The position numbers and the translations under genes were made by a program. 64,000 nt of DNA from a virus, in the IMG/VR virus record IMGVR_UViG_3300021511_000005, positions 45,479-109,478 of that record. One strand, written 5' to 3'. The stretch's first letter is position 1, and the number at the start of each line of letters is the position of its first letter. The notes under the pieces were generated by a model. That model was given only the letters and a program-made list of their open reading frames with translations, had not been told where the DNA came from and ran no database searches. Positions 35,400-57,796 of the stretch are shown piece after piece.

Positions 35400-35855
35400 A
35401 TGACCACCCTGATCATCACGGCGATCCTGTGGTTGGCGCCTCAGGTGGAGCCGGCGGACGCGAAGCTCTACGCGACTCATATTCAGCGAGAGGCCACCCG
35501 CTGGGACCTGGACCCCCTGCTGGTGCTGGCGGTGATCAAGCGGGAGTCCGGCTTCAACCCCAGGGCCAGGTCCAAGACGTCCGACTATGGCCTGATGCAG
35601 GTCCATGTCTCCAAGACGACCTACTCCGGCTACCTCCATCATCCGGAACGACTCTACAACCCCAAGCTCAACATCCGTTTGGGGATCCGCCTGATGGCCA
35701 TCTGGAGGGACTACCACGCCGGCCGATGTGAGGGTCAGCATCCGTTCTGGGCCCACTTCAAGTACGGCAAACGGATCCCGCGCAAGCGCAAGGGCAAGAA
35801 GGTGGACGCTATCTACCGGGAGCTGGTGGCCAAGTTCCGCAGTTCGGGGGTTTGA
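35400..35855 (+). CDS. lytic transglycosylase (SLT domain)
   Basis: LDPLLVLAVIKRESGFNPRARS...GLMQV...LYNPKLNIRLG; N-terminal signal. Confidence 0.88.
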   Translation: MTTLIITAILWLAPQVEPADAKLYATHIQREATRWDLDPLLVLAVIKRESGFNPRARSKTSDYGLMQVHVSKTTYSGYLHHPERLYNPKLNIRLGIRLMAIWRDYHAGRCEGQHPFWAHFKYGKRIPRKRKGKKVDAIYRELVAKFRSSGV

Positions 35856-37939
35856 TGCAGCGATACCCGGTGATGGGGCGGGTCCCCAAGGTCCTGCTGC
35901 GGAACACCAAGCCCACCCCCACGCCGGTTATCAACGGGACGACGGTTCCGCCCATCCGGGAGCTGGTTAACGCGGAGCTGACGCCGGAGCGAATCGCCGC
36001 AGCGGTGGAGCTGGCGGGCACCGCGGCCCAGCACGATCCGGGCTGGAGCTGCGCCTACGATCAGCTGCTGCGGACCAGCTGCTGCTTCTTCGCGACGGAG
36101 AAGATCCGGGGCCCCCAGGAGGAGCCCTATAACGGCAAGTTCCTGGTGGGACGCCATCACCTGGAGTGGGACAAGATGATCCCGCGCTACGACCGGATGA
36201 ATATCCTGGCGGCGCGGGACCACGGCAAGTCCTTCTTCTGGACGCTGGCCTACCCTATCTGGAAGGCCGGCTACAACAAGCCTGGGAGCTTGGGTTACAT
36301 CTTCAGTTCGACGCAGCCGGAGGCGGAGAAGTTCCTCCGGATGATCAAGGACGAGATCCTCGAGAATCCGGAGTTCGCCCACCTGATCCCTTACACGCGG
36401 GACCGCTACTGGTCGGCCAAGGAGATCAAGCTCCGCAACGGGTCGGTCATCAGGGCGCGCGGCTTCGGGGTCAAGGTCAGGGGCGGGCACCCCGACTGGG
36501 TCATTGCGGATGACGTCCTGGACGATGAAGACATCTATTCGGAGACTATCCGCCGGCGCAACGTGGACTACTTCTTGTCCGCCATCGCCAACATGGTTCC
36601 GATGCAGGAGCATGTGGTTGAGCACAAGCGGGCTCAACTAGTGGTCGTCGGGACTCCGATGCACCAGGCGGATCTCTATGCGGCGCTGGACTCCACAGGT
36701 GAGTACGAGTGTCGGAAGTATCCCTGCAGGAACAAGGCGGGGGAGCTGTTGTTCCCCGAGCGCTACAGTGAAGCCACGTTACTCCGTAAGCGGCGGGAGC
36801 TGAAGTCAGAGGCCCGGTTCGCCAGGGAGTTCATGTGTGAACCGCTGAGCGATGAGGCCAGCCTCTTCCCCTCAAAACTGTTCGTGGGAAAGACGGTCAG
36901 CGGGGACGCGATTCGTGTGCCCTACAAGTTGGGGATGCCTGCGAGTTACTGGGAGGCCAAGGGCTGCTTGCGCTATACCGGCGTGGACATCGCGATGTCC
37001 GCGGAGACCGGGGGCGACTACTTCGTGATCTTCACGGTCGCGGTGGACCAGGCGGGCAACCGCTGGATCGCCAACATCACCCGTAAGAAGGGGATCAGCT
37101 TCCAGGCTCAGCTCGACTTGATCAAGGACGAGTACTATCTCTTGAAGCCCGAGACCATCCTGATTGAGGCGAACCAGATGCAGCGGGTCTGGGCCGACGA
37201 GATTGTCCGGGAGACAGACCTACCAGTGAAGAAGTTCTTCACGACGGGCGTGGGTGGAACGCAACCGGATCAACCCTGGAAGAAGGGAGCCACGTCCATC
37301 AGCGTCAACAAGAATCACCTGGACCGTGGCGTTCCGGCGCTGCGGATCTCCCTTGAGAACGGCAAGTGGCGGATTCCGCGCGGGGACGCGGAGGCCATCG
37401 AGACCACTGACTACTGGATTGGGGAGATGGGTGCCATTGGCTGGATCGATGGGAAGGTCCAGTCAGTGGGCGAGCATGACGACACTGTGATGGCCTGCTG
37501 GATGTGCAACACGGCGGTCACCATGGGCGCGGCCGCGAAGCTCGACATGATCGAGACCGGTCCGGAGGAGCGTCGGGCTATCTTGGCGGCGCCGAAGCCG
37601 GAGGAGCTGATGGGAGAAGACGAGGTCAACACTTTGGAGCAGGACACCAGGAAGGCTTTGGCCGCCGTCCACAGCGGTAAGAAGACCAGCCTGGACCGGG
37701 ACACCTACATCATGGGGGGCCGGGATGCTTTGCAACACTACGCCGGTCAGTGCGTGGACTGGGGTGATGAGACCCGGGCGGTGGTGGTGCTGGAGGAGAT
37801 CAAGCGGCTGGACCGGTTACACGGGGTCCGTGCTGGAGACGTCCACCTTGCATCTGCGGAACGCGGAAGGTATGTTCAAGGCGCCGATTGGGCACCCCAG
37901 GAGCACGCCCCAACCGCCGAAGATCTTGGTGTTACCTAG
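35855..37939 (+). CDS. terL: terminase large subunit
   Basis: Walker A AARDHGKS, VRGGHPD, Walker B IADDVLDD, VVGTP, GVDIA, HDDTVMACW; C-terminal extension. Confidence 0.92.
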   Translation: MQRYPVMGRVPKVLLRNTKPTPTPVINGTTVPPIRELVNAELTPERIAAAVELAGTAAQHDPGWSCAYDQLLRTSCCFFATEKIRGPQEEPYNGKFLVGRHHLEWDKMIPRYDRMNILAARDHGKSFFWTLAYPIWKAGYNKPGSLGYIFSSTQPEAEKFLRMIKDEILENPEFAHLIPYTRDRYWSAKEIKLRNGSVIRARGFGVKVRGGHPDWVIADDVLDDEDIYSETIRRRNVDYFLSAIANMVPMQEHVVEHKRAQLVVVGTPMHQADLYAALDSTGEYECRKYPCRNKAGELLFPERYSEATLLRKRRELKSEARFAREFMCEPLSDEASLFPSKLFVGKTVSGDAIRVPYKLGMPASYWEAKGCLRYTGVDIAMSAETGGDYFVIFTVAVDQAGNRWIANITRKKGISFQAQLDLIKDEYYLLKPETILIEANQMQRVWADEIVRETDLPVKKFFTTGVGGTQPDQPWKKGATSISVNKNHLDRGVPALRISLENGKWRIPRGDAEAIETTDYWIGEMGAIGWIDGKVQSVGEHDDTVMACWMCNTAVTMGAAAKLDMIETGPEERRAILAAPKPEELMGEDEVNTLEQDTRKALAAVHSGKKTSLDRDTYIMGGRDALQHYAGQCVDWGDETRAVVVLEEIKRLDRLHGVRAGDVHLASAERGRYVQGADWAPQEHAPTAEDLGVT

Positions 37940-37952
37940 CTAGGAGAGGCCC

Positions 37953-40900
37953 TTGTCCCATTACCTACGGAATCCCCTGATACCGGGGCAAGGCCCCAAG
38001 CTGGTGATAGGTATGCGGAACCTGCGGAACGATGTCCGCGTGGACACGTCTGCGCTGGCGGAGTTGACCCGGCCGCCGAAGCCCCTGGGCCGGCCGGTCA
38101 TACCCGGCGGGGAGCATGAGTACCGCTCCGCGGATGAGGTCGCCAAGGGTCTGGGACTCAACCACGACCAGGAGCGGGACTTTCTCCAGGCGATGAAGGC
38201 CTGGTTGAGCGAGCCCAACGTGGTGTCCTTCCGCAAGTCGCTGGTCCGCGGTCTGCGGAAGATGGCACCCGGCAACGGTCCGTTGCGTGGGGAGCTGGCG
38301 CGCCGGGCGGTTCAGGTCTGGAAGGCCACAAGGGGGAACCACCCCTCTCGGACCTACGGACGGGAGGGGCAGCCCCAGGACATCATCCGCAAGGCCAAGA
38401 AGGACAAGCCTATCAGCGGTCAGTTGGGGTTGTTTGGGGGGACGCTGCCCAAGGGCGTCACAGTGGGCAAGCCCAAGAAGCCCAAGAAGCAGGTGAAGGC
38501 CGCGGCGGCGAGTGCGGGCTGGCAGGCGATCCCCGCGGGGAAGCACGGCGGCCAGCGCCGGCGGAAGGGCAATAAGTGGGAGTACCGCTACCCCGATGGT
38601 AAGGGAGGCTGGTCAGGCCAGCCCCAGAAGGCTGAGCCCAAACCGGTGAAGGTCCCAGAGCTGAAGCCCGAGGCCCGGAAGATGGCGTACAAGGGCCTGC
38701 GGACCTGGGTCACCGCGAGCGGTCACGGGACGACCAAGGAGGAGCTGGAGCAGCGACTGGCCGCGGCGCTCGAGGCCCAGAAGCAGTCCGAGGTATTTAG
38801 CTTCAAGGTGACGCACGTCAAGCGGGAGAAGGCCCAGAAGCATGACGACGGCCGATCGGTCCCCGCCTATGACGAGTGGGACGTGGAGGTCGAGCACCAG
38901 GCTGCCATTCCCGGTCACCAGTTGACCGGCAAGATCGAAACGGCCACTGGCGTGGTGACGCTGTTCCACGACAAAGCTACCGTTTCCAAGGACGATTACG
39001 CGCGGGCGCAGAGGGGCGTCTGTGACGTCTGCAAGACCAAGCGTCGGCGGAATTCGGTCTTCGTGGTGCAGCGGGAATCCGACGATAAGCACTTGTTGGT
39101 GGGTGGAGAGTGTTCCAAGAAGTTCAAGGGGGCCAATCTGTGGCGGTTGGCCAACGCCATGGAGGAGGTGGACCTGGGCGGCGCCATCGCGGATGCCTTT
39201 GACGAGGGAGAGGGCTTCGGCGGTGGTGGTGGTGGCGGACCCCGGTCCGCGGAGCCCCACGATCTGCTGGGGACAGCGTTGTGGCTCGTCCGTAAAGAGG
39301 GCTATATCGGCGGCGCGGATGCAGATGCCGAGATGACCATGTCCACACCCGATCGGGTCAAGGAGATCCTGGCCGGGGGGAAGGCCGCCCCAACCAAGGA
39401 GGAGCAAGCCGAGATTGATCGGGAAGCCGAGCTGATCAAGAAGGACCTTCCCGAGATTCGGAAATGGATCCAGGAACGCATCCCCACGGACCCGGACGCG
39501 GTCATCACCAAGGACATCGCGTTTGCGGTGACGGTGGACAAGCTCCTGGGCTCCGATTTCATCGAGCCCAAGCACTTCAGCCGCGTGGTGTGGGTTCCAC
39601 ATCGCTACTACAAGATGGTTCAGCGGCGTGAACAGAAGGCGAAGGCCAAGCCCTACGAGGCTCCCCACGCCAAGATGCACAACCTCCCCGGTGAGTGGAC
39701 GATCTTGTCCAACACCGTCAAGGACTCGGACTACGGTTCCTACAACTCGGTGACCGCGATGGACGCGGAGGGACACAAGATCTGGTTCCGCCAGACAGAC
39801 GCCTACGATCTGAAGGAGGGGGACAAGGTCACGCTCCGCGGCAAGCTCAAGGATCAGAAGGACACCATCACGTTCATGTCCCACATGAAGGTGAAGAATC
39901 TGTCCGAGGAGAAGCGGCAGTCTGTGATCGAGGCCGAAGCCGAGGAGTTCCGCAAGGAGCGGGCGCGGCGGATGGCGAGTACGGATCCGAAGGAAATCGT
40001 CCAGGTCAAGATGCACGAGGCCTATGATCCAACACCAGGCGGCACTGAGCGCCAGTCGGCCTTCCGCAAGAAGCTGGTCAAGGCTGTGGTGGCTTTGATG
40101 AAGGAAGGCGCCGAGATCCCCCACGACGCCCTGTATACGACGTGGGATTACTTCGACGGCTACGGCGACGACAAACGACCCGAGAAGGAGAAGCGCGGGG
40201 ACCCGGTAGCCGCCGCGGCTACACGCCAGTATGCCAAGGTCCAGGCCGGCGAGAATCCGGTCAACGCCAAGGAGCTGTTGGAGCTGTTACCCGAGGTGGG
40301 GGCTCGCATGATCCGCAAGAAGTTGGGGGAAGAGGCAGCCAAGTGGATCTTCAAGCGGGCCGGCCTGGCCAAGTCCATGGATGATGATTTGGCGAGGCTG
40401 CGGCCGCGGATGATCCTTCAGCCCACGAGTCACCCTATGGAGCTGGTATGGATGGCCGAAGAGGTCCCGGACAATCTCCACGAGACCTGGAAGCGGATGC
40501 CTCCGGGTTGGCCGGCCGCCGATGAGATCCTCAAGGCGAAGTACTTCAAGCGGACGGGCTCGCCGGGAAACTACGTTTACTACTACAAGCGAGACGATGG
40601 ATCGGTCCAGGCCGTCCGCCAGAAGATGCACCCGGAGGGTGATCCTCGGAGGCGGGGTCCCTACAAGAAGACCAAGAACGCCAAGGGAGAGACCGTTTAC
40701 ACCGGCGGGGAGAAGCCGCCGGGCGCGGGCTGGGAGAAGATCCCGGAGAGTCCACACGGCGGGATGCGGCGGCCGGTGAGCGGCGGCAAGGTCCGTCAGT
40801 GGGAGTTCTGGTATCCGGGTGGGGGGGAGAAGCAGACGGCGATGTTCGGTGGTGGGGGTGCAGCCCCGCCGGCACCGGCGGCACCCGAAGCGGCCAAGGG

Positions 40901-43403
40901 TGGCCCGGTCAAGTGGTCCAAGACGGATGGCGGCTACGAAGCCCGCGGCGGCTCCATCAAGATCCGGAAGCAGGGCAAGAAGTGGGAGATGGTCTACTAC
41001 GGCGAGACCATCCCCATCACCACCAGGAAGCCGAGCTTCGACCACGCGGAGGGTTTGATTCGCGAGCGTGAGGCGCCAAAGCAGACCGACCTGTTCCGTG
41101 CCCTGATGGCCACGGGTCTCTTCGAGCTGCGGAAGGCGGCGGGGCACAAGTACTTGAAGCGGATCCCCACGGGCAAGCCCAAGCCCAAGTATCGCTACAT
41201 CTACCGCCAGCCCAAGGGTGGGCTCACCAGCTCCAGGGACATCCAGGCCGGCGCCAAATTCAAGGTGGAGCACGCCGGCAAGTTGGGTCACTTCGAGGTC
41301 AAGGGCCACGACGCCCACAACGGAATCGTGACGCTGCAGCATGACGAGTCGGGCAGGATCGCCCATATCCGGGAGAAGGACCTACACCGGATGATCACCA
41401 GCCACCACGAGAAGCAGACCAAGAAGGTTACCGAGAAGCCGGACGAGTTCGCGGCAGAGCGGGCGGAGCTGCGCCAACGGCTGGCCACGAGTGAGGCCAA
41501 GCGCCGGCGCGCGGAGAAGAAGGCCCCCAAGAAGCCGGAGGCCAAGGGGCCCGTTCCGGAGCTTCCGCGGGCGAGCCTGGAAGACCTGGGCAAGGGTGGC
41601 TACGACAAGATCGAGGGCTTCAGTGCCGACCCGAAGGATCTGGAGACGCAGGCGTCCCTGATGGGGGGCGATCGGGAGTATGCGATCATTCCCCAGGCCG
41701 GTGGTCACGTTCTGGCGAGCCGGGCCAAGGCCAGCGGGACGGTCAAGGAGGCCAAGGGAGACAAGGCGGAGCTGGTGATGCGGGGCTCCAAGGGCAAGAG
41801 CCTGGACAAGGTGGAGGTGGAGTACGTGGTGATGGAGGCCAAGGACCTGGTGGCCAGTCATGATCCCACAAGCTTCGAGCCCCGGGCGGCCTATCCCGAG
41901 GGCGTCCAGGAGCGGCGTTACGAGGTCCAGGGCTCCGGTGATCAGGGCAAGATCGATCGCATTGCGCGGGAAATGGAGCCGGCGCTGATGGTCAACACCA
42001 ATCCGTCCGCCATCGACGGGTCCCCGATGGTCACCGAGGAGGGGATCGTCCTGGGCGGCAACGGGCGAACCATGGGCCTGCAGCGGGCCTATCAGCTCTA
42101 TCCAGAGAAGGCTCAGGAGATGAAGGACTACCTGGCCAAGCATGCCCGCGGCTTCGGCGTTAGCTCCGCAGAGCTGTCCAAGATGAAGCAGCCGGTCCTG
42201 GTGCGGCGGATGAAGGCGGAGACCAAGGATCTGACCGCGCTGGGTCGGCGGATGAATGAGGCGCTGACCCAAGGCATGGACCCGCGGACCATCGAGGTCG
42301 CGCTGGGTCAGAACTACGTCACGCCCGAGCTGATGGACAGCCTCACCCACAACATGGACCCGGGCCAGTCGATGTCCGAGTTCCTGCGGACCGCCAAGTC
42401 CCGCCCCTTCGTGGAGGCGCTCGAGCGCGCCGGCGTTATCGACCAGTACAACAAGGACGAGTTCGTGGAGAAGGGAAAGGGTGTCCTGAACGAGGACGGC
42501 CGGATGCGGGTGGAGCGAGTTCTGACCGCTCGCATGATCCCGGATGCCAGCGCCTTGTCCCGGATGGGGACCAAGCTCCGGCAGACCATCGCCAAGAGCG
42601 TCCCTTCCCTGATCCAGATGGAGCGCAACGGGTGGAGCGTCCAGGAGGCGCTGGAGCTGGCCGTCAAGGTGGACAACGACATGCGGCTGGAAGGCTTCAG
42701 CGGCGGGACCCGGACGTCCAAGAAGGCAGGCGGCAAGATCAAGATCCCGATGTCCGAGCACCGCGAGTCCTACAGGCAGCAGCAGACCCTGGGGGACAGC
42801 CTTCAGCGCCAGATCGAAGGGAACCCGCTGGCCCAGCTCCTGCTCGAGACGATCCAGGACAAGGCGGACAAGAACATGCCGTCCAAGTGGCGTCAGGTGG
42901 CGCTCGAGGCGGATCGCCAACGGGCGCGCAAGGCCTCCGCCGGTGAAGCTAAGGGTCAGGCCATGCTGGGCGGCGAGGACATCGTGGAGGAGCGGTCCTT
43001 GGAGGACAGCATCCGCGGCGCGTTCGGGCTGAAGAAGCAGGCCCAGCAGGGTGGCCTGTTCGCCATGAGCCTCCCGGAGCCGGATCTGGTGAAGGCCGGC
43101 GCGGAGCTGACCAGCTACCTGATGCACGCGGTCTTGTGGGAGGTCGAGAACCTGATCCGCGGGGCGGTGGTGGACGGGAAGCCCCCGAGCGGCGGGCAGC
43201 TTTTGCCGCGGCTCCAGGCCTTCATCAAGGACCAGGCCGCGGCGGACCAGAAGTTCGCCCAAGCTTTGGGCGCTCATCCCCTGAGTTCGGAGGCCCTGAA
43301 GGGGCTCCTGAAGGCCTCCGCGATGTCACGATCGACAGACCTGGCCAAGAGCATGGCTCGCTCGAGCCTGCATGCCAGCTGGAGGGATTTGTATGCCGGC
43401 TAA
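37953..43403 (+). CDS. 1816-aa polyvalent head-associated protein (Zn-finger/OB module; DdrB-like ParB module)
   Basis: CDVC...RRRN.VFV...VGGEC and C-terminal OB-like strand set; YVVMEAKDLVASHD...QER.Y...DGSPMV...VLGGNGRTMGL...PVLVRR (DdrB-ParB). TTG start with AGGAGAGG RBS. Confidence 0.8.
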   Translation: MSHYLRNPLIPGQGPKLVIGMRNLRNDVRVDTSALAELTRPPKPLGRPVIPGGEHEYRSADEVAKGLGLNHDQERDFLQAMKAWLSEPNVVSFRKSLVRGLRKMAPGNGPLRGELARRAVQVWKATRGNHPSRTYGREGQPQDIIRKAKKDKPISGQLGLFGGTLPKGVTVGKPKKPKKQVKAAAASAGWQAIPAGKHGGQRRRKGNKWEYRYPDGKGGWSGQPQKAEPKPVKVPELKPEARKMAYKGLRTWVTASGHGTTKEELEQRLAAALEAQKQSEVFSFKVTHVKREKAQKHDDGRSVPAYDEWDVEVEHQAAIPGHQLTGKIETATGVVTLFHDKATVSKDDYARAQRGVCDVCKTKRRRNSVFVVQRESDDKHLLVGGECSKKFKGANLWRLANAMEEVDLGGAIADAFDEGEGFGGGGGGGPRSAEPHDLLGTALWLVRKEGYIGGADADAEMTMSTPDRVKEILAGGKAAPTKEEQAEIDREAELIKKDLPEIRKWIQERIPTDPDAVITKDIAFAVTVDKLLGSDFIEPKHFSRVVWVPHRYYKMVQRREQKAKAKPYEAPHAKMHNLPGEWTILSNTVKDSDYGSYNSVTAMDAEGHKIWFRQTDAYDLKEGDKVTLRGKLKDQKDTITFMSHMKVKNLSEEKRQSVIEAEAEEFRKERARRMASTDPKEIVQVKMHEAYDPTPGGTERQSAFRKKLVKAVVALMKEGAEIPHDALYTTWDYFDGYGDDKRPEKEKRGDPVAAAATRQYAKVQAGENPVNAKELLELLPEVGARMIRKKLGEEAAKWIFKRAGLAKSMDDDLARLRPRMILQPTSHPMELVWMAEEVPDNLHETWKRMPPGWPAADEILKAKYFKRTGSPGNYVYYYKRDDGSVQAVRQKMHPEGDPRRRGPYKKTKNAKGETVYTGGEKPPGAGWEKIPESPHGGMRRPVSGGKVRQWEFWYPGGGEKQTAMFGGGGAAPPAPAAPEAAKGGPVKWSKTDGGYEARGGSIKIRKQGKKWEMVYYGETIPITTRKPSFDHAEGLIREREAPKQTDLFRALMATGLFELRKAAGHKYLKRIPTGKPKPKYRYIYRQPKGGLTSSRDIQAGAKFKVEHAGKLGHFEVKGHDAHNGIVTLQHDESGRIAHIREKDLHRMITSHHEKQTKKVTEKPDEFAAERAELRQRLATSEAKRRRAEKKAPKKPEAKGPVPELPRASLEDLGKGGYDKIEGFSADPKDLETQASLMGGDREYAIIPQAGGHVLASRAKASGTVKEAKGDKAELVMRGSKGKSLDKVEVEYVVMEAKDLVASHDPTSFEPRAAYPEGVQERRYEVQGSGDQGKIDRIAREMEPALMVNTNPSAIDGSPMVTEEGIVLGGNGRTMGLQRAYQLYPEKAQEMKDYLAKHARGFGVSSAELSKMKQPVLVRRMKAETKDLTALGRRMNEALTQGMDPRTIEVALGQNYVTPELMDSLTHNMDPGQSMSEFLRTAKSRPFVEALERAGVIDQYNKDEFVEKGKGVLNEDGRMRVERVLTARMIPDASALSRMGTKLRQTIAKSVPSLIQMERNGWSVQEALELAVKVDNDMRLEGFSGGTRTSKKAGGKIKIPMSEHRESYRQQQTLGDSLQRQIEGNPLAQLLLETIQDKADKNMPSKWRQVALEADRQRARKASAGEAKGQAMLGGEDIVEERSLEDSIRGAFGLKKQAQQGGLFAMSLPEPDLVKAGAELTSYLMHAVLWEVENLIRGAVVDGKPPSGGQLLPRLQAFIKDQAAADQKFAQALGAHPLSSEALKGLLKASAMSRSTDLAKSMARSSLHASWRDLYAG

Positions 43404-46400
43404 CGTTGTGACGACTGGGACGGACGAGGCCCGGTGGGCCCGTGCGAAGGCAGCGGCGGCCAAGCAGGGAAAGGCCAAGAACTACGCGCTGGTGATGCAC
43501 ATCTACAAGCAGATGACCAAGGCGAAGGACCCGGATGAAGACGAGGGCGAGGCCCACAAGATGCCCATCCCGGGGATCCCCGCGAGCTGGAACAAGGGGG
43601 AGATTCTGACCGGTGGCGAGGGGGACAAGCGGCCGGACTCCGACTTTGACGCCACGGCGCTGAAGCAGGGGATCAAGGTGGAGTTCGAGCACACCACCAG
43701 CCGAGCGGTGGCGAAGGAGATCGCCAAGGACCACCTGACCGAAGACCCCCAATATTACAAGAAGCTGGCGACCATCGAGAAGGCGTTTCCAGGTCCGGCA
43801 GCTCCACCGGCGGGACATGCGGCCGGCGGCGCTCAGATTGGGGAGGTCCACGACTGGGGCCGGGGCAAGATGCGGAAGGTGGCTCCGGGTAAGTGGGAGC
43901 CGGTGACGGGGCCGCAGTCGGGGGCAAAACAGCAGCCCACAGGGCCAGAGCCAGCCACAGAGGGCACGGCGGACCATCACCGTCAGCAGGCCCTGGTCCA
44001 CACCCAGGCGGCCATGGCGCACGCCGTAGCTCACCAGAGCGCCAAGGAGCAAGAAGAGGCCGCCAAGCATGACGACAACGTCAGGGAGGCCAAGGAAGCC
44101 AGCCAGGAGGCTTACGAGGGCAAGGACGGCCGCCCGGTCGAGCCCCAGAGCCTGGAGGACAAGATCAAGGCTCTGATGGAAGAGCACGGCCAAGATGCGG
44201 TAGCCGCGGCTACCAGCAAGGCGGCCAAGGCCACAGCGGCCGGGCTGGACAAGGCTTTCCAGGCGGAGGCCAAGAAGGTGGCGGGCTCTGAGGGTGTCCA
44301 AGCGGCCGCCGGCGATGCCATCGCCGCGGCGGGCATCAAGAAGGGCGGAGAGGCTCCTAGCAAGTCTCAGGTGGACCAGGCGGTCAAGCACGCAGCCCAG
44401 GACCCCAACGTCAAGAAGGCGGCCCGGGATGGGCTGAAGGCGCTTGAGGGCCCCGGCGCGGACGCCTTGGTGTCGGGACTCGAGGCCGCGGTTCCGCCGG
44501 AGGAAAAGAAGAAGGCGAGCTGGAAGACCAAGGCGGCCGCGGTGGCCAAGATGATGATCCGGCCGTTTGTCTTCGGGTTCGTGGATAACTTCGTGATGTA
44601 TGTCGCGGGTTCCGCGGTGGACGGCGCTGTCCAGGGCGCTGGCTTCAGCTCTGCGGCCACGGCGGGGATCGGCAACGCCATCTCTGACGCGGTGGGCGAG
44701 ACCGCTGGCGGCTTGCTCGAACGGGCTCTACCGGACGAGGAGAAGCTGAAGGCGGAGCTGGGCAAGGACACCTACGAGAAGATGGAGAAGTTCCTGCAGC
44801 CGCTGGGGGTCTTTACCGGCGCGCTGCTGGGGATGATTCCGTTGGCCTTCGGGGTATCCTTCGGTAAATCTATGCGGCGGGAGATGGACATCCAGAAGGC
44901 CAGAGCCAAGGTCGCCGCGGGGCAGATGGGCTTCCAGTTTGGGGCGGCGAAGCCGGCCGGCGGCGGCGAGGGTTCGAGGGGTGGCGAAGTTGTGGGTCAC
45001 ACGGCCAGCGGCAAGGCCATTTACAAGAAGAAGGTCGCGGACCACGAGGCCAAGGCCAAGGAGCATGCCACCGCGGCAGCCAAGGCGACGGACCACGGTG
45101 TTCGGACCAAGCATTTGCACGCGGCCAAGGCTCACCAGGTTGCCGCGTCAGCCCACCGTATTGGGCACAAGGACGCGGACAAGGTGAGCACGGGGGCGGA
45201 AGGTTACAGCCGGCGAGCCCATCGGGCGCGGCCGACAGCGCCCCAGCGTCCTAAGCTTCAGCGGCCCACGTCTGCGGACCGTCCGCCGGGGATGCGAGCG
45301 AGGGCACCGGCAGCCAAGAAGGTGTCACAACCACACGCACAACCGGGCTCCGGCTCGCACCTGCAATTCTCAATGGAGGACAACATGGACATGAACAAGG
45401 CCGAGCTGCGGAAGTCTCTGATCAGTTTCCGCGGTCTGCGGAAGGGGCTGTACAACCGCGTGACCGAGTGGGCCGGTCAATTCATGGGGACGCCGCTGTA
45501 CGTGGAGGCGTTGCGCTGCCTGAAAGAGAAAGCCCAGTGCGACAAGGAGGCGGAGGCCACGCGGGCCAAGCATAAGTCTTGGCGTGAGCTGGAGGAGCTT
45601 CCGCGGAGTCGGCGCCAGGAGATGCGGAAGAAGCAGGACAAGGCCATGGACGTCCACCACCAGCGCAGCAGCAAGATCCTAGCGAAGATGGACGGTTTGG
45701 AGGAGAGGCTTCTGGACCACCAGATCGCGGAGGCGGAGCGGATGGGCAAGGGCGACGTGGACAAGGCCACGCCGATCAACCTTCCGGTGATCAAGTCCAC
45801 GGACGCTGTTGTCGAGGGGTTGGAGGAGCTGTTCAAAGCCGGCCAAGCGGCTGGACCTTTCCGCGGTCCCAAGGGTGGGCTGTGGGCTGATCCCGAGCAC
45901 AAGGTCCCCTATAAGCCGTTGGCGGGCAAGACGTCCAAAGCCGGACACAAGGGGGCCCACAAGGCTCATGTGATTCACCACGAGCGGGAGGCGGTCCGCG
46001 CGCGCAACAAGGGCAACGAGAAGGTGGCTGGCGCGCACCTGGACGCGGCGGACGCCCACAAGGTCGCGATGAAGGCCAAGCCCACTACGCTTGCGCGAGA
46101 GGCTGCCTATTCGGCTACCAAGAAGGCGAGTCACGACAAGGATCGGGCAATCCGGAAGCAGGCCTCGCACGTCAATAGCCACAAGGACCACGGGCATTAT
46201 GCCGCCCGGCTCCGCAGCTCGGCGGAGGAGGCCAAGCAGATGGGGATCGGCTCCCATGTAGACAAGTTGGCCCGGCAGCACGAACAGGCCAGCTCCGCCC
46301 ACAAGCACGCTGCGGAGATGCACGGTAAGGGGCACGAGTCCGCGGATGACCACAGCAAGGTGGCAGCCAAGGCCACGTCCACGGCCTTCGGGGATCCCAC

Positions 46401-47622
46401 GAAGCTCCCCCCATCACCACCGCCGGCGAACAAGGAGTCCGTCTTGGGCGGAGGCCACGCCCATCCAGCAGGGACTAAGGGAGCCGCTGAGCATCACGGC
46501 AAGTCCAAGGACTACCATGGGCGCCAGGCCGCCCACGCGCTGGCTCACGGCTACAAGAAGGACGCCATGATGCACGCGATGGCGTCCAAGCTCCACGGGG
46601 ATGCTCAGGATTTCCACGACAGCAAGCATGACGACGCGGGCTACTGGAGTGAGATGGCAAACAGCTCTACCAGAGCCGCAGAGCATCCCGAGGGCTTCAG
46701 CGACAAGCCGGGGGCCAAGACGACCCGAGAGGAGAAGGCAGCGATGGGCAAGAGCTTGGACCAGACGATGGACGATCTGATGAAGGCGGCCAACGGGGAG
46801 CCTGTGGCCGCATCCATGCGCCCCAAGGACGGCAAGGACGCCCAGACCAGTCTGGTGAAGAAGAAGTCTGGAGAGGAAGAGGAGGAGAACGGTCCCGGGG
46901 ACAGCGAGCACCACAAGGACCAGGCGATGTCCCATCTGGCGGCCGCCCAGGCCCATGCCACGGCCCACCGTTCCGCGAAGCAGCTCGAATCCGCGGACGG
47001 GCATCAGAAGAACGTCGAGGCGGCGCAGCAGGCCAGCGAGGCCGCAGCTCCGCCGGAGGAGGAGAAGAAGCCGGTGAAGAAGCCAAACGCGATCAAGAAG
47101 GGGTCCATGGTGATTCACCTGGACGCCGAAGAGGAGATCCTCAAGGGACTGGGCGACTCCGGGTTATCGGTCCAGGGAGCGGCCCAGGATCCCTACGGCA
47201 AGTACCGGATGGCTGCCATGGGGCGCGGAGATCCCGATGAGAACGTTCGCGCGGCGTCCTTCGAGAAGAGCGGGGTGGCCGGCGGGACGATCTTCGAGGG
47301 CGAGCACAACACTCAGGGTTTCCGCGAGGGTGACTCCCGGGAGGCCCATATGCGCGCCCAGGAGCTGGCCCAGGTAGTGGAGGATGACCCGGCGGGCTTC
47401 GAGGGTCAGGGCGGCCTTCCGAGCTGGTGGAGGGACGCGGGCCACCTGGTCAACGTCCCGGTGGGGGTCCGACCGATGGTCAAGGCGGTGGAGCCCCCGG
47501 TTCAGATCCTGGACGATTCCGACCCTCACACGCGGGCGATGGTCAACACCGATCCGCGCGAGGGGCAGATGGGCGCTCTGATGGCATACAAGGGCGCTGG
47601 CAAAGGCCGCGGCACCCGATAG
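43393..47622 (+). CDS. 1409-aa multi-module head-associated protein (DUF5661-like, His-rich helical repeats, TMEM65-like membrane domain)
   Basis: GGEGDK...GIKVEFEHT...EIAKDHLTEDPQYYKKL (DUF5661-like); PFVFGFVDNFVM...AGIGNAISD...GALLGMIPL; ATG 43393 with GGAGG RBS. Confidence 0.75.
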   Translation: MPANVVTTGTDEARWARAKAAAAKQGKAKNYALVMHIYKQMTKAKDPDEDEGEAHKMPIPGIPASWNKGEILTGGEGDKRPDSDFDATALKQGIKVEFEHTTSRAVAKEIAKDHLTEDPQYYKKLATIEKAFPGPAAPPAGHAAGGAQIGEVHDWGRGKMRKVAPGKWEPVTGPQSGAKQQPTGPEPATEGTADHHRQQALVHTQAAMAHAVAHQSAKEQEEAAKHDDNVREAKEASQEAYEGKDGRPVEPQSLEDKIKALMEEHGQDAVAAATSKAAKATAAGLDKAFQAEAKKVAGSEGVQAAAGDAIAAAGIKKGGEAPSKSQVDQAVKHAAQDPNVKKAARDGLKALEGPGADALVSGLEAAVPPEEKKKASWKTKAAAVAKMMIRPFVFGFVDNFVMYVAGSAVDGAVQGAGFSSAATAGIGNAISDAVGETAGGLLERALPDEEKLKAELGKDTYEKMEKFLQPLGVFTGALLGMIPLAFGVSFGKSMRREMDIQKARAKVAAGQMGFQFGAAKPAGGGEGSRGGEVVGHTASGKAIYKKKVADHEAKAKEHATAAAKATDHGVRTKHLHAAKAHQVAASAHRIGHKDADKVSTGAEGYSRRAHRARPTAPQRPKLQRPTSADRPPGMRARAPAAKKVSQPHAQPGSGSHLQFSMEDNMDMNKAELRKSLISFRGLRKGLYNRVTEWAGQFMGTPLYVEALRCLKEKAQCDKEAEATRAKHKSWRELEELPRSRRQEMRKKQDKAMDVHHQRSSKILAKMDGLEERLLDHQIAEAERMGKGDVDKATPINLPVIKSTDAVVEGLEELFKAGQAAGPFRGPKGGLWADPEHKVPYKPLAGKTSKAGHKGAHKAHVIHHEREAVRARNKGNEKVAGAHLDAADAHKVAMKAKPTTLAREAAYSATKKASHDKDRAIRKQASHVNSHKDHGHYAARLRSSAEEAKQMGIGSHVDKLARQHEQASSAHKHAAEMHGKGHESADDHSKVAAKATSTAFGDPTKLPPSPPPANKESVLGGGHAHPAGTKGAAEHHGKSKDYHGRQAAHALAHGYKKDAMMHAMASKLHGDAQDFHDSKHDDAGYWSEMANSSTRAAEHPEGFSDKPGAKTTREEKAAMGKSLDQTMDDLMKAANGEPVAASMRPKDGKDAQTSLVKKKSGEEEEENGPGDSEHHKDQAMSHLAAAQAHATAHRSAKQLESADGHQKNVEAAQQASEAAAPPEEEKKPVKKPNAIKKGSMVIHLDAEEEILKGLGDSGLSVQGAAQDPYGKYRMAAMGRGDPDENVRAASFEKSGVAGGTIFEGEHNTQGFREGDSREAHMRAQELAQVVEDDPAGFEGQGGLPSWWRDAGHLVNVPVGVRPMVKAVEPPVQILDDSDPHTRAMVNTDPREGQMGALMAYKGAGKGRGTR

Positions 47623-49998: not shown

Positions 49999-52900
49999 TT
50001 GGCCCTGTTGACACCAGAACAGCTGGAGCAGCTGCGGCGCGCCATTCAAGACGCATCGACCGCCGTGGCAATCTCCACCGTGGGCCACACGGTCACGGAT
50101 GACGAGCTGCAGCGGCTGGTGGACGAGGGCTGGGTGGATCCCGATAAGGTAGACGACGTCGTCATGACGGGTTTCCAGTACGGTAATCTGTTGAGCCACC
50201 TTCCCCGGGCCGCGGACATGGGCCTGGGGGCCTTCATCAAGGAGATCCAGCGGAACCCGATCAAGCTGTCCGCCGCGGAACGCCAGGCCGTCCAGATCGC
50301 GAGGGACCGTGCTGGCCAATACTGCGCGGGCCTGGGCTCGAGGTACAACGAAGAGATGGGCCGGATGGTGGTGGAGGCGGACGCCCAGCTGGCCAAGGTT
50401 ACTCGAGAGTTGATTGCTGACGAGACCGCCAAGAACATCGCCACACGCGGGACGCGGAAGCAGCTGGGTCAAACCCTGGGCAAGTTGACCCGCGACTGGG
50501 CCCGCGACTGGCGCCGAATCGCTAATACTGAGATTCATATGGCCCAGCAGGAGGGCTACCTGGAGGACGTCCGCGAGCGTTACGGGGACGATGAGCTGCT
50601 GGCCAAGATCCCCGAGCCCAACGCTTGCAAGCATTGCAAGCGGCTCTACCTGGATGGCGATGGTCAGCCCATCGTCCGTCCGGCGTCTTGGTGGGCAGCT
50701 CAGGGGGCGAGCAACGCCGGCCGCAAGGCTGCGGACTGGCTCCCCGTCCTGGGAGCGATGCACCCCTGGTGCCAGTGCCGGATGATCCGGGTCCCGGCGG
50801 GCTGGAAGCTGGACGGCGAGTTTCCCGACTGGGACTTGGTTCCCGAGGGCCTGGAGACGGAGAAGTCCCGAGTCGCGGATACTGCGACACGGGACCAGCT
50901 CGAGAAGGCCAAGAAGCCCACTCAGATGGGTTTCGCCTGGGAGCCTGCTCCGAAGTCCCGGAAGGGTGCGGAGCGGCGCAGGCTGCCCGGTGGGGGCTAT
51001 GAGTACCGCTATCAGACTCCGGTCCGCGCGGAGACCCGGAGGAAGGTCCACGGGGCTGAAGACCTGGCCGCGGTCACGTCGATCTTCGTCAACGTGTCCG
51101 GCGGTTCCGAGCGCAAGCGGTTTGTTCCGCAGGAGGAAGGCGAGGGCGTGGACATCGCGTCCAAGAACGTCCACGCCCAGATCACCGCCCACGAAGTCCC
51201 CAAGACCGACAAGGGCCGGTCCCGCTTCGCCAAGCTGGCGAAGGAGCGCGGGATGCGACTGATGATCGACTCCGGCGAGTTCGGCCGTTTCGGTAAGGAG
51301 CTGCGGGAGTACAAGAAGGCGGAGAAGGAGGAGCGGGAGCCGGTGGTTCCGGAGCTGGACTTCAACAAGGTCTTCGACAACTACGAGGCCATGGCCAAGC
51401 TGTTCCCCGCGGGGAAGCTGACCGTGGTGGCGCCGGACCGCATCGCGAACCCGGACAAGACCGCGGAGCTGCGGAAGCAGTACGCCGGGCGAGTCAAGGC
51501 ACTGCAGGCCGGCGGTGCGGAGGTCATCGTTCCAATCCAGGCCCGGTCCGCAGAAGAGATCGGGAAGGACTACATCGCGGCGACCAAGGTCTTCGGGGAG
51601 GACGTGACGCTGGGCTTCCCCACAGCGGCCGCGGTTCTGCCGATGGAGGAGATCCTCCCGGCGATGGCCCAGCTCTACGCTCACGGCAAGTTCCCGCGGA
51701 TCCACTTCCTGGGCGGCGGACGTCCCCGGGAGATGGCGGAGCGGACGGCGCAGCTCGTGGCAGCGGCCTACTTCGCCGGCCAGGGCGTGGCGCCGGAGCG
51801 TGTCCTGGAGCTGACCAAGACCGCGGACCTGGCAGCCCGCGCGCTACGGAACGTCAAGACCGCGGACATGGTCCTGGGGCGCGAGGCGGACGAGGCGCTG
51901 TCCGCGCGGTTCGAGGCATGGGCGGAGGAGCAGGGCCTGGACACCAGCGATCCGGACTTCGACGAGACGGAGGCCTGGCCCGACTTCTACGAGGCTCACC
52001 CGGAGGAGTTCAACCTGGAGCTGGACAGTGAGGATAAGCCGAAGTTGTTCCGCAAGATGGCCGCGGACCTGGTGCAGATGGACAGCCGCGTGGTGGGTTC
52101 CGCGCAGCAGTACGGTCTCCAGCACGACCCGATCACCGGGACGCAGATCAAGGCGGGGAAGAAAATCACGGCGCTGCCCAAGGCGGAGCGCCATCCGGCC
52201 ACGCTGCAGGCCTATTTAGAGGCTCGCGAGCATCAGACCGAGCGCTTCACCCCGCCGGCGATGTCCGCCTGGGAGGCTCTGTGGGGCGATTTTGAGAAGG
52301 TGGAGAAGGTGGAGAAGTCGCGGAAGCTCCACGGTCGGCGGAAGTTCCAGGGCTTCGATATCTCGATCGAGAACCGGGTGGGTTCAGTCCGTCACTGGTA
52401 CGACAAGGCCACGGACACGAAGGGCGAGACCAAGATGGTCAACCCCTACGGCTACATCCGTCTGACTGAGGGAACCGACGGCGACCATGTGGACGTCTTC
52501 CTGGGAGAGGACGAGCAAGCGCCGCGGGTTTACGTTATCCATCAGATGAAGGCCCCGAGCTTCACCGAATACGATGAGGACAAGTGTATGTTGGGGTTTC
52601 CGTCGGCGCGGGCGGCCAAGGCGGCCTACCTTCGCCACTTCGACAGTCCCAAGTTCTTCGGCTCGATGACAGCGCTTCCCGTGGAGGAGTTTCGCAAGAA
52701 GGTCTACAAGATGAAGGGCGAGCTGATCAAGGCGGGAGGGACCTACTCCGGATACGCCTCTGGTTCCCAGCCGCGGTCCACGTCGATCGTAGGAACCATG
52801 GGGCAGCATGATCGGAAGGCTCCACGGACGGCCGGGGCCAATGTTCGCGAGAACCGGGCGGATCACACCGAGGACTGGCCGCCCTATCAGGAGCGGCGGA

Positions 52901-53208
52901 TCCGCAAGGTCCGCAAGGTGGTCTCCGCGGAGGGAGCCGCCGATCCGGTCCTGGCAGGGGTGAGCCTGACCCAGCTCGTGGCCGCCGCAGAGCGGTTCAA
53001 CGTCCGCGGGCTTCAGCAGAGCCACGACTGGGCCAACAAGCCAAAGCTGGACCGTTGTCCGGACCTGAACGAAGCTGTGGCCCGGACGGACGCGGGCAAG
53101 AAGAATCTGGAGACCGTCGAGGAGATAGGACGCCAGCGGCGGAAGACCGCGGCGGGGGCGCGTTTGACGCTGAACCCCAAACTGATCCGAAGGGAGCAGA
53201 AGCGATGA
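49999..53208 (+). CDS. MuF-like head morphogenesis protein fused to TGT/DpdA-like barrel and polyvalent-type inorganic pyrophosphatase (InPase)
   Basis: RDWRRIANTE...ACKHCKRLY...MHPWCQC (MuF-like); IDSGEF...VAPDRIAN...VIVPIQ...IHFLG...DS; ISIEN.VGSVR...PYGYI..TEGTDGDHVDVFLG...YDEDKCMLGF (InPase). Confidence 0.8.
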   Translation: MALLTPEQLEQLRRAIQDASTAVAISTVGHTVTDDELQRLVDEGWVDPDKVDDVVMTGFQYGNLLSHLPRAADMGLGAFIKEIQRNPIKLSAAERQAVQIARDRAGQYCAGLGSRYNEEMGRMVVEADAQLAKVTRELIADETAKNIATRGTRKQLGQTLGKLTRDWARDWRRIANTEIHMAQQEGYLEDVRERYGDDELLAKIPEPNACKHCKRLYLDGDGQPIVRPASWWAAQGASNAGRKAADWLPVLGAMHPWCQCRMIRVPAGWKLDGEFPDWDLVPEGLETEKSRVADTATRDQLEKAKKPTQMGFAWEPAPKSRKGAERRRLPGGGYEYRYQTPVRAETRRKVHGAEDLAAVTSIFVNVSGGSERKRFVPQEEGEGVDIASKNVHAQITAHEVPKTDKGRSRFAKLAKERGMRLMIDSGEFGRFGKELREYKKAEKEEREPVVPELDFNKVFDNYEAMAKLFPAGKLTVVAPDRIANPDKTAELRKQYAGRVKALQAGGAEVIVPIQARSAEEIGKDYIAATKVFGEDVTLGFPTAAAVLPMEEILPAMAQLYAHGKFPRIHFLGGGRPREMAERTAQLVAAAYFAGQGVAPERVLELTKTADLAARALRNVKTADMVLGREADEALSARFEAWAEEQGLDTSDPDFDETEAWPDFYEAHPEEFNLELDSEDKPKLFRKMAADLVQMDSRVVGSAQQYGLQHDPITGTQIKAGKKITALPKAERHPATLQAYLEAREHQTERFTPPAMSAWEALWGDFEKVEKVEKSRKLHGRRKFQGFDISIENRVGSVRHWYDKATDTKGETKMVNPYGYIRLTEGTDGDHVDVFLGEDEQAPRVYVIHQMKAPSFTEYDEDKCMLGFPSARAAKAAYLRHFDSPKFFGSMTALPVEEFRKKVYKMKGELIKAGGTYSGYASGSQPRSTSIVGTMGQHDRKAPRTAGANVRENRADHTEDWPPYQERRIRKVRKVVSAEGAADPVLAGVSLTQLVAAAERFNVRGLQQSHDWANKPKLDRCPDLNEAVARTDAGKKNLETVEEIGRQRRKTAAGARLTLNPKLIRREQKR

Positions 53209-55569: not shown

Positions 55570-56376
55570 ATGGCCAACCATCCTTCAGAGATACCGTTTC
55601 ACTTCGAGCTGCCCATAGAGGTATGGGAGAAGGCTGGCGATCCCGGCAAGGAGCGGCGGATCGGCGGCGTTATCTCTTCTCAGGACAAGGACCGCCAGGG
55701 CGAGGTTGTCCTTCAGCGCGGTCTGGACTTCTCCGAATTCATCGATCACGGGTGGTTCAACGATAACCACAGCAAGGATACGACGGGGATCGTCGGTTAC
55801 CCGGAGAAGGTGGAGAAGCGGACCATCAACGGGCGCCCCGAGCACTACGTGGAAGGCTATCTGCTGCGGGGTTTCGATAAGGCGGACGAGATCTGGAAGT
55901 TGGCTCAGTCGCTTCAGAAGACCAACCGCCGGCTGGGCTTCAGCATCGAGGGCTCCGTGATGAGGCGGGAAGGGCTCGACGGAAAGACGATTGCCCAGGC
56001 CAAGGTCCGCAACGTGGCGATCACGAATTGTCCGGTCAACACGTCCACGGGTCTCGAGATTCTGGCCAAGAGTATGATGGCCATGGAGTCCGAGGGTGAT
56101 CAGTCCGCGGCGGCCCACAGATGCTGGGGGGAGGGCGACTGTTGTGGAAGCTGCGAGACCGCGGACGCCGAGAAAGCGATGTCCGCTGGTCAGGCGGTGA
56201 GCGACCCGGGCGCATCTCCGGGCGAAGGCTTCGCGTTGCGGACCGAATCCATGGAAAAGAAGCCTAAGCGACTGACCAAGGCGGAGGCGATCAAGTTCCT
56301 TCAATCCCGTTATCGCGATCTGTCCAAGGCGGACGCGGAACGAATCTATCGCCACGCGGTCAAGATGGCCGCGTAA
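55570..56376 (+). CDS. prohead (capsid maturation) protease, HK97/U35-like
   Basis: DRQGEVVLQRGLD, NDNH, IVGYP, YVEGYL, LGFSIEG, VAITNCPVN. Confidence 0.9.
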   Translation: MANHPSEIPFHFELPIEVWEKAGDPGKERRIGGVISSQDKDRQGEVVLQRGLDFSEFIDHGWFNDNHSKDTTGIVGYPEKVEKRTINGRPEHYVEGYLLRGFDKADEIWKLAQSLQKTNRRLGFSIEGSVMRREGLDGKTIAQAKVRNVAITNCPVNTSTGLEILAKSMMAMESEGDQSAAAHRCWGEGDCCGSCETADAEKAMSAGQAVSDPGASPGEGFALRTESMEKKPKRLTKAEAIKFLQSRYRDLSKADAERIYRHAVKMAA

Positions 56377-56386
56377 GGAGGATCCA

Positions 56387-57796
56387 ATGGCGGACGAGAG
56401 CAGGCAGTTGACCCTTGACGACCAGGCGGCAGAGCTGGCGGCGACGATGAACTTCGACGGCGCGGGTGCCCCGCTGGAGAAAGGGGGAGCCGCCGGCGAT
56501 CTGCCCGAGGGGCAGACCAGCGCGGAAGGCGGTTTCACCCAGGACGCCGGGGGCCAGGTTATCACGGCGGGCGTGGAAGGCGCGGTCAACAAGGGGGGCC
56601 AGACGGGCTCCCAGATGACGAGCGAGCCGGGCGCGCAGAACCAGAACCCCAAGACCGGCCGCGCCATGAGTGGCGAGCCCGGCGCGGACGCGGGCGGCGG
56701 AGCCGGCACCGGTGGCAACCTGTCTCAGGATGGGGATGCCAGCACCCGGGCGCGGAAGCCCGGCCAGGTGGGCGTCAGCGGCGGTTCCACTGGCGGCGGA
56801 AACTTGTCGGAGTCGGAGGACGACAAGATCCGTGGACGCAAGGCTGGGAAAGTCGGCATCTCCAAGGCGGAGGCCATCGAGATGGGTCTGTCCAAGGCCC
56901 AGTACGACGCCATGATGGCCAAGGGCCTGATCAAGGCGGAGGTCGAGGAGGATGACGAGGTCGAGGACGAGGAGAAGGGCTGCAAGAAGTCCGTCTCCGC
57001 CGGCGACTTGATGAAGTCGCTGGACACGCTCGAGGCCGTGGCCTCCGGTGCGGGGATCCCCACTACGGAGGATCGTCGGGTGGAGCTGGCCAAGGGCTTG
57101 GAGGCCGGTCAGCTGACTCAGGACGAGATGGTGGAGCTGGCGGACCTGATGAAGGCTGCGACCAGCTCCGACGAGGACGAGGACGCCCTGGTCAAGGGCG
57201 GCGATGTGGACGAGCTGGACGGCGTGGTCGATGAGGTCCAGGACCTGGACGATATGGACAAGAGTTTCCAGGAGCAGTTCGCAGACGCAGAAGCGGACCA
57301 CGACACCTACGACATCAGCCCCTACCTGGAGAGACTTCACCAGTCCACGGCGGCGGCGCTGGACCAGATCCAGGGCAACCTTCAGAAGGCGATGGACGTC
57401 CAGGGCAGCAACCAGCGCAACTTCAACGTCAACCTGGCCAAGAGCTTGAAGGGTATGGCTCAGTTGGCCCAGGACCAGGGGGAGCTGATCAAGAGCCTGA
57501 CGGACCGGCTGGAGCATGTCGAGAACCAGCCTCTCCCCCGCATTGGGGCGACCAGCGTCCAGCAGCTCCAGAAGTCCATTCCCAACGAGGCGACCGGAGC
57601 CGGTGGCAACGGTCTGAACCGGACCCAGATCTTGGACGCCATGACGGACATGGCGTGTCGCCAGGAGATGGCCCCCTGCGGGGAGAAGTTGGACCGCGCG
57701 GTGGCGATGTTCGAGTCCAGCGGCCAGCTCAGCAAGTCGCTGTACCGGGACGTCCAGAACTTCATCAAGAGCAACGGAATGGTCCAAGTCCACTAG
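56387..57796 (+). CDS. capsid scaffolding protein
   Basis: Between protease and MCP; acidic and Gly-rich; more than 15 hydrophobic-x-K-[A/S/G] sites. Confidence 0.75.
   Translation: MADESRQLTLDDQAAELAATMNFDGAGAPLEKGGAAGDLPEGQTSAEGGFTQDAGGQVITAGVEGAVNKGGQTGSQMTSEPGAQNQNPKTGRAMSGEPGADAGGGAGTGGNLSQDGDASTRARKPGQVGVSGGSTGGGNLSESEDDKIRGRKAGKVGISKAEAIEMGLSKAQYDAMMAKGLIKAEVEEDDEVEDEEKGCKKSVSAGDLMKSLDTLEAVASGAGIPTTEDRRVELAKGLEAGQLTQDEMVELADLMKAATSSDEDEDALVKGGDVDELDGVVDEVQDLDDMDKSFQEQFADAEADHDTYDISPYLERLHQSTAAALDQIQGNLQKAMDVQGSNQRNFNVNLAKSLKGMAQLAQDQGELIKSLTDRLEHVENQPLPRIGATSVQQLQKSIPNEATGAGGNGLNRTQILDAMTDMACRQEMAPCGEKLDRAVAMFESSGQLSKSLYRDVQNFIKSNGMVQVH

Follow-up and report, generated by a model that had tools for sequence, protein, structure and literature searches.

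A TMEM65-family membrane module within a polyvalent-like, probably protease-processed head protein of an uncultured phage

The IMG/VR virus record IMGVR_UViG_3300021511_000005 is a linear sequence of 109,478 bp with 63.9% GC and a CheckV completeness of 97%. Its right-hand 64 kb (64,000 nucleotides, called the window below) contains a head gene module, and in that module lies a gene for a 1416-residue protein, P0002. A stretch of 107 residues in P0002, assigned here to the TMEM65 family of membrane proteins, is the subject of this report. The P0002 reading frame has a clear coding signature (GC3 0.82, GC2 0.47), and the protein combines a DUF5661 domain, the TMEM65 module and long stretches of low complexity. 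These stretches are rich in histidine, alanine and lysine, occupy residues about 560-1240 (window about 45050-47100), contain recurring helical repeats of the A-H-x-x-A type, and gave no family match. The DUF5661 module has tblastn matches in huge uncultured phages and in a DUF2213 protein of a Vibrio phage. No family in PHROGs, NCBIfam or PADLOC matches the TMEM65 module or P0002. Coordinates of all mapped features are collected in Table 1.

The segment almost certainly belongs to the TMEM65 family, as had been proposed from the letters of the DNA in an earlier annotation, the sequence-only reading. Translation of the plus strand gives 107 stop-free residues that hold the three peptides quoted in that reading. 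TMEM65 (PF10507) is the sole Pfam-A match of the segment (E=5.8e-16), with 58.8 bits against a gathering cut-off of 25 bits, coverage of profile positions 5-107 of 109, and the DN and GNxxSD residues in place. A six-frame search of the whole record found TMEM65 in single copy (57.6 bits), and the same profile had no match in 14 well-known control genomes. In a phmmer search of 1.84 billion representative proteins, 477 relatives of the segment were found at E<=0.001, and all 32 short homologues taken from that list match Pfam TMEM65 themselves. When the segment is aligned with these 32 (33 sequences in total), it keeps all 13 invariant columns, among them F8, G9, D12, N13, G20, A38, G41, N42, G49, G90, G94 and L98. 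A chance resemblance, or a generic hydrophobic stretch of the tape-measure kind, is thus refuted by a Pfam score more than twice the cut-off over nearly the full profile, by the phmmer relatives and the short homologues' own Pfam matches, by the kept invariant columns, and by a three-helix AlphaFold2 model. Nothing was found in favour of this alternative, and its probability is negligible.

The AlphaFold2 model, built on the 33-sequence alignment, has a pLDDT of 78 and places helices at segment positions 4-30, 34-59 and 72-99, with a short connector helix at 63-70. Hydropathy peaks at helices 1 and 3. Helix 3 is the most hydrophobic 19-residue stretch in the nine head-module proteins scanned, and within the two largest giant proteins the module is the sole membrane-like segment. 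The key residues of the module are D405, N406, N435, S438, D439, G442 and E450, together with a helix-3 glycine zipper formed by G479, G483 and G487. A two-copy complex prediction scored 0.00 and gave no verdict on a dimer, which is evidence neither way.

The sequence-only reading had also related the module to VIT1/CCC1 transporters (PF01988), and this part of it found no support. The segment has no VIT1 match at E<=0.1, and none of the 33 family members has one at E<=10. In structure comparisons, VIT1 is listed neither by Foldseek against the PDB (best E=4.3, nothing of note) nor by a wide VIA-align search (best Z 5.8, generic helical matches); the fold is thereby tied to no solved transporter, and one shared with VIT1 may still exist. 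Against BFVD, the best Foldseek match is a 94-residue viral protein (TM 0.67).

Human TMEM65 is a three-span protein of the mitochondrial inner membrane with a glycine zipper, and mediates Na+-dependent Ca2+ efflux (PMC12830682; PMC13254257). Mutagenesis showed that its activity needs D132, D167, G170 and E178 (PMC12830682), and, according to work cited in PMC13254257, the purified protein is a homodimer that exchanges Ca2+ in a Na+-dependent manner when placed in liposomes. In cellular homologues the rule is a spacing of 35 between the two aspartates, a glycine at +3 and a glutamate or other acidic residue at +11. All four positions required in the human protein are kept in the phage segment, as D12, D46, G49 and E57 (D405, D439, G442 and E450 of P0002), with the mapping drawn from this conserved spacing rather than from the human sequence. 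Moreover, the 14 phage-clade sequences all have D12, N13, D24, N42, S45, D46 and G49, at an overall identity of 42-53%. Buried polar residues conserved to this degree speak for ion binding that has been retained, rather than for a mere anchor.

The phage module thus shares with eukaryotic TMEM65 three helices, the FGF-x-DN motif, GN-x-x-SD-x-x-G with the acidic residue at +11, and the glycine zipper of helix 3. It differs in having no targeting peptide or acidic tail, in being embedded inside a much larger protein, in an alanine where helix 3 otherwise has a cysteine, in a clade-specific F-G-K-S end, and in a more polar loop. Hydrophobicity is also lower in the phage clade, at 0.75 for helix 2 (cellular homologues, 1.11) and 1.74 for helix 3 (cellular homologues, 1.93). 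EF-hand Ca2+-binding domains occur in 8 of 33 short TMEM65 homologues (P0057, P0059, P0066, P0069, P0074, P0084, P0131 and P0133), which gives the calcium link of the family independent support.

The closest relatives of the segment almost all lie within giant proteins of 1251-3037 residues. A survey of phage homologues, a step suggested by the sequence-only reading, places the module in at least 16 giant polyvalent proteins. Pfam domains accompanying it there are ddrB-ParB, DarA_C, InPase, LPD1, ART-PolyVal, ParB_N with HTH_ParB, and N6-methylase with SNF2 helicase. Its position within these proteins varies freely, from residue about 190 to about 1550, and therefore fits a shuffled cassette. 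When 162 domain sequences were placed in a quick maximum-likelihood tree, all 16 copies from giant proteins grouped with three shorter sequences as a single clade (SH-aLRT 92, stem length 0.47). This clade stands apart from a clade of short sequences, which includes four loci of Pseudomonadota metagenome-assembled genomes, and from a large clade with most of the remaining sequences. As taxon labels are absent from the library, the large clade is judged probably eukaryotic from the EF-hand fusions common among the short homologues.

One distant relative, on a metagenome contig of 46% GC (L010), has a 1725-residue protein with ART-PolyVal, InPase, TMEM65 and ParB_N with HTH_ParB (L010:44-5221). 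It is followed by a 1528-residue SNF2-helicase protein (L010:5202-9788) and then by genes for a protease-scaffold protein (phrog_1028) and a capsid protein (phrog_752). This locus is a textbook example of a polyvalent pair, here with the membrane module included, and it repeats the head-module context in a distant relative.

TMEM65 also occurs in viral genomes as a separate small gene. A tblastn search of 50,697 deposited phage records gave one partial match, in the cultured Vibrio phage 2.275.O (MG592671.1, 349 kb). There the gene NVP2275O_332 encodes a free-standing 94-residue TMEM65 protein among tRNA genes (L099:5004-5288), and the record itself tags it pfam:PF10507. A free-standing copy in a cultured jumbo phage suggests that the activity itself is useful to phages. 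In IMG/VR we found nine further TMEM65 loci, all encoding proteins of 124-500 residues; a tblastn comparison of the nine with the head proteins of this phage recovered the module and nothing else. Marine viral or metagenome contigs (L003, L005, L053, L013, L050 and similar ones; match at about 10001-10330) encode proteins of 270-340 residues, in which an uncharacterised N-terminal part of about 170 residues precedes a C-terminal TMEM65 domain; the neighbours of the L053 gene had no informative PHROG match. These genes belong to the same Pfam family as the P0002 module, but they are separate, the sampled ones fall outside the polyvalent clade, and the F-G-K-S end is absent from all free-standing viral and cellular homologues whose ends were compared.

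The setting of the P0002 gene is that of a phage head module. Upstream lie the genes for the terminase large subunit (TerL) and a giant ddrB-ParB protein, and directly downstream lies the portal gene; a giant multi-domain protein at such a place has the gene setting of polyvalent proteins. The portal and capsid proteins are 37-40% identical to SPO1-like myovirus proteins, and a weak, sub-threshold match to a tail sheath lies outside the window at record positions 8063-8569. Two small reading frames separate the portal gene from the gene of a 1069-residue InPase protein. The next reading frame (53055-55259, about 734 residues, with its true start probably after 53208) matches phrog_1926 (E=2e-7), a family annotated "released from the phage upon host infection", which is a hint of further ejected cargo encoded in the region. 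Protease, scaffold and major capsid protein genes follow. An endonuclease VII/HNH-like reading frame (59353-59898, phrog_3281) stands directly after the capsid gene, and a glycosyltransferase-like one (62030-63355, phrog_2170) farther 3'.

Table 1. Features of the P0002 gene and the surrounding head module. Positions are those of the window; an arrow marks the predicted scissile bond.
Feature	Position	Strand	Basis and remarks
Terminase large subunit (TerL)	35852..37939	+	Profile searches
1816-aa polyvalent protein with ddrB-ParB	37953..43403	+	Pfam; adjoins P0002 upstream
Gene for 1416-aa putative cargo polyprotein (P0002)	43372..47622	+	DUF5661, TMEM65 module and long His/Ala/Lys-rich regions; 20 hydrophobic-x-K↓A/S/G motifs
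DUF5661 (PF18905) module, aa 95-137 of P0002	43654..43782	+	E=4.4e-11
Predicted protease site LDK↓A, K294 (codon 44251-44253)	44245..44256	+	Upstream boundary of predicted 205-aa fragment
Predicted protease site VKK↓A, K349	44410..44421	+	Nearest strict-motif site upstream of module; predicted 150-aa fragment
TMEM65-family module, aa 394-500 of P0002 (Pfam match aa 398-493)	44551..44871	+	Pfam, alignment
Predicted helix 1, aa 397-423, FGF-x-DN motif	44560..44640	+	AlphaFold2 model, hydropathy
Predicted helix 2, aa 427-452, GN-x-x-SD-x-x-G and E450, weakly hydrophobic	44650..44727	+	AlphaFold2 model
Predicted helix 3, aa 465-492, G-xxx-G-xxx-G glycine zipper	44764..44847	+	AlphaFold2 model, hydropathy
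Predicted protease site FGK↓S, K499 (codon 44866-44868), directly after helix 3	44860..44871	+	Motif, clade alignment
Predicted protease site IQK↓A, K509 (codon 44896-44898), start of next module	44890..44901	+	Motif
Q-M-G-F-Q-F tag (QLGLF type), few residues past cut site	44923..44940	+	Recurs after cut sites in other cargo proteins and homologues
Portal protein, SPO1-like, 37-40% identity	47632..49341	+	Directly 3' of P0002
1069-aa protein with polyvalent-type InPase	49999..53208	+	PHROG relatives annotated minor head or virion structural protein
Head maturation (prohead) protease, presumed cut-site enzyme	55570..56376	+	phrog_1028, E=2.5e-44
Scaffold protein	56387..57796	+	PHROG; motif in 17/27 lysines
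Major capsid protein, SPO1-like, about 39% identity	57838..59271	+	phrog_752

Processing of P0002 is suggested by a short motif, [LIVMF]-x-K-[ASG]. The scaffold protein has 17 copies where 1.8 are expected (z about 13, the highest z in the genome). P0002 has the second-highest z in the genome, 4.9, with 20 copies against 7.8 expected, a count reached by none of 2000 shuffles. The major capsid protein carries LRK↓A at residues 29-32 (window 57922-57933), where a propeptide junction is expected. Control motifs with arginine or glutamate in place of lysine, with other P1' residues, or with a non-hydrophobic P3 residue are not enriched, and in the scaffold the sequence hydrophobic-x-K is never followed by a residue other than A, S or G, although four such cases are expected. 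We therefore reject mere coiled-coil composition as the source of the enrichment. The L010 relative repeats the pattern, with 11 motifs against 2.5 expected in its protease-scaffold protein and LQK↓A at residues 22-25 of its major capsid protein. Scaffolds are classic substrates of prohead proteases. Because the motif saturates the scaffold here and recurs in L010, it very probably gives the Lys-directed specificity with which the phrog_1028 protease cuts in this phage group.

Sites of this kind flank the module. LDK↓A, FGK↓S and IQK↓A lie where the sequence-only reading had placed them, and its description of P0002 as a head polyprotein proves well founded, since the gene sits in the head module and its sites match the motif that saturates the scaffold and marks the capsid propeptide junction. 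At the end of the module, F104, G105 and K106 are invariant and S107 is nearly so across the 14 aligned phage-clade domains. In 7 of the 14, a site also lies directly before helix 1, which predicts a freed unit of about 105 residues.

A second short element follows some of these sites. The tag Q-[LM]-G-[LF]-(x)-F stands 5-12 residues past a K↓A site in three of the four giant proteins of this phage and in many homologues; besides P0002, it occurs at residues 157-162 of the 1816-residue protein (about 38421-38438) and at residues 80-85 of reading frame 53055-55259. Up to four copies are present in one homologue (P0013), where fewer than 0.06 are expected by chance. The tag matches the bacterial beta-clamp-binding consensus, QLxLF, and could equally be a capsid-targeting or handling tag.

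P0002 resembles several known classes of virion-delivered proteins, and differs from each of them. The polyvalent proteins of Iyer, Burroughs, Anand, de Souza and Aravind (2017, PMC5512222) are likewise giant, multi-module, and encoded beside head-morphogenesis genes in phages of the terminase-portal type, and their hallmark domains (ART-PolyVal, InPase, ddrB-ParB, DarA_C, LPD1, methylase and SNF2) are found in the relatives that share the TMEM65 module. That paper treats soluble domains alone: the word "transmembrane" appears 0 times and TMEM65 is unmentioned. It also proposes an in-built MPTase peptidase for processing, whereas prohead-protease sites apparently serve here. The hallmark domains sit in the neighbours and in module-sharing homologues and not in P0002 itself, and P0002 is therefore best called a polyvalent-like cargo.

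Known prohead cut motifs end in glutamate (L/I-x-E in T4, S/A/G-x-E in phiKZ-like phages), and the site found here follows lysine instead. P0002 is otherwise comparable to T4 IPI-III and Alt, P1 DarA and DarB, and the internal and ejection proteins of phiKZ and SPN3US (PMC5694885, PMC10052503) in its head-module gene and in a cut-site motif common to scaffold and capsid protein. Those proteins are packaged with the DNA and released into the host; for P0002, the case is made from sequence alone. To our knowledge, none of those processed cargoes is an integral membrane domain of a transporter family. T7 gp14, gp15 and gp16, P22 gp7, gp20 and gp16, and the hydrophobic segments of tape-measure proteins are carried in the virion and end in the host envelope at entry. 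The T7 and P22 ejection proteins are phage-specific, and we know of no homology between them and cellular ion transporters. The P0002 module, by contrast, belongs to a conserved cation-transport family and keeps its functional residues. The sequence-only reading knew of no description of this domain in a capsid-region protein, and the literature searched contains none, nor any paper joining TMEM65 or PF10507 with polyvalent proteins or describing the domain in phages. An integral-membrane module of a transporter family in a polyvalent-type, protease-processed capsid cargo is undescribed in that literature.

The reading we favour is finely balanced, tilting slightly toward doubt: the module may be cut out by the protease, travel in the capsid and, at entry, insert into the host membrane as a three-helix unit that transports cations. 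A virion-delivered ion transporter or channel, as the sequence-only reading had proposed, would thus fit the evidence best. The 1416-residue protein would be made late and would join the other giant head-module proteins in the prohead, kept in solution by the lower hydrophobicity of its helices 2 and 3 compared with cellular homologues. The prohead protease would then cut at hydrophobic-x-K↓A/S/G, freeing a TMEM65 piece of 150-205 residues in this phage, and the minimal unit of about 105 residues in the half of aligned relatives with a site before helix 1, as motif statistics and conservation suggest. Excision would be the simplest workable architecture, because with three membrane spans the soluble modules before and after the unit would end up on different sides of the bilayer; in the relatives, DNA- or nucleotide-directed enzymes flank the module on both sides. 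The unit would leave the capsid with the DNA and insert into the host cytoplasmic membrane. There, judging from homology, it could pair or oligomerise and move cations, by Na+/Ca2+-type or H+-coupled exchange or as a leak. The acidic and polar residues needed by human TMEM65 would serve transport, and ion balance or membrane potential would be altered locally in the first minutes of infection. The parts of this proposal differ in strength: the module is probably protease-processed capsid cargo, and transport of cations at entry is possible but somewhat less likely than not.

Several points weigh against this proposal. The near-invariant cysteine of helix 3 (position 91) is the residue replaced by alanine in the segment and in the phage clade. 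In this phage, the sequence VAK-M before helix 1 misfits the strict motif, and the two other cargo candidates, the 1069-residue and 734-residue proteins, show no motif enrichment. P0002 has no canonical polyvalent marker domain (Pfam finds DUF5661 and TMEM65 alone) and no PHROG match. A sequence search of the PDB found no TMEM65-family structure, which leaves the ion path without a solved structure for comparison. For TMEM65 itself, transport by the protein as opposed to regulation of NCLX is debated (PMC12830682 for the former; bioRxiv 10.1101/2023.10.06.561062 for the regulator view). A few delivered exchanger copies would move few ions, unless the unit acts as a channel or leak. Finally, packaging, cleavage and transport are all read from the genes of an uncultured IMG/VR record.

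The excised three-helix unit might instead form or hold a passage for DNA and cargo, in the manner of the T7 and P22 ejection proteins or tape-measure segments, with ion transport not its purpose. A conduit would suit a segment more membrane-like than any other in the nine head-module proteins scanned, a helix-3 glycine zipper of the oligomeric-pore type, and the marginal hydrophobicity expected of a protein that travels soluble and inserts late; the module also accompanies many large soluble enzymes that need passage across a membrane. However, a mere conduit or anchor has no need of the intrahelical polar residues that are required in human TMEM65 and invariant in the phage clade. The module is also rare, as the single partial match in the deposited phage records indicates, and most polyvalent-protein phages therefore manage without it, while the free-standing copy of the Vibrio jumbo phage lies in a non-structural, tRNA-rich region. 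We regard a conduit as unlikely, though it deserves to be taken seriously.

Two further explanations dispense with packaging of the membrane piece, and both seem to us improbable. The module could tie the portal initiation complex or the head core, while these are forming, to the cytoplasmic membrane, as in T4 prohead assembly, with cleavage at FGK↓S freeing the prohead and leaving the membrane piece behind. The gene directly upstream of the portal gene, and the cleavage motifs on both flanks of the module, would suit a tether, and an invariant cut site just past the last helix is what release would require. But three spans inserted during translation would separate the large N-terminal and C-terminal parts by the membrane (in relatives, ART and InPase against ParB or helicase), the freely varying position of the module is that of shuffled cargo rather than of a fixed anchor, and the conservation of transport residues would go unexplained. 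Alternatively, the module could be a late or host-takeover membrane protein that is merely fused to P0002 and acts inside the cell, in ion homeostasis, superinfection exclusion or lysis timing. Free-standing TMEM65 genes in non-structural contexts of other viral genomes agree with an intracellular role. The fusion partners and gene position, on the other hand, are those of virion-packaged polyvalent proteins (PMC5512222), and the cut sites match the specificity deduced for the prohead protease, an enzyme known elsewhere to act inside proheads.

The known cargo of polyvalent and ejected head proteins consists of soluble enzymes that neutralise host defences. If capsid delivery and cation transport by the P0002 module are both real, the module would be the first known case of a transporter-type membrane protein carried in virions, and would represent a new class of early weapon, one that manipulates host ion balance or membrane potential before phage gene expression. 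A pre-made, capsid-delivered mini TMEM65 exchanger or channel could insert within seconds and reset ion gradients or membrane potential, possibly powering or gating genome entry, blocking superinfection, or blunting abortive-infection defences based on depolarisation or Ca2+; this extended form of the proposal we consider somewhat unlikely. How a capsid could carry a three-helix membrane protein in soluble form, and how that protein would then enter a membrane from the outer side, are questions that follow from it.

The finding may also serve the study of the TMEM65 family, whose transport role has been recently established. The phage clade offers minimal units of ~105 residues and a natural record of the residues that matter and, if the proposal is true, a minimal member of the mitochondrial Na+/Ca2+ exchanger family that passes from solution to membrane and is usable for the study of mechanism. 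With the Lys-directed motif across scaffold, capsid and cargo, the mature cargo peptides of this phage group can be predicted by a rule that is open to test. Vibrio phage 2.275.O, being in culture, is a tractable system for what the TMEM65 family does for a phage.

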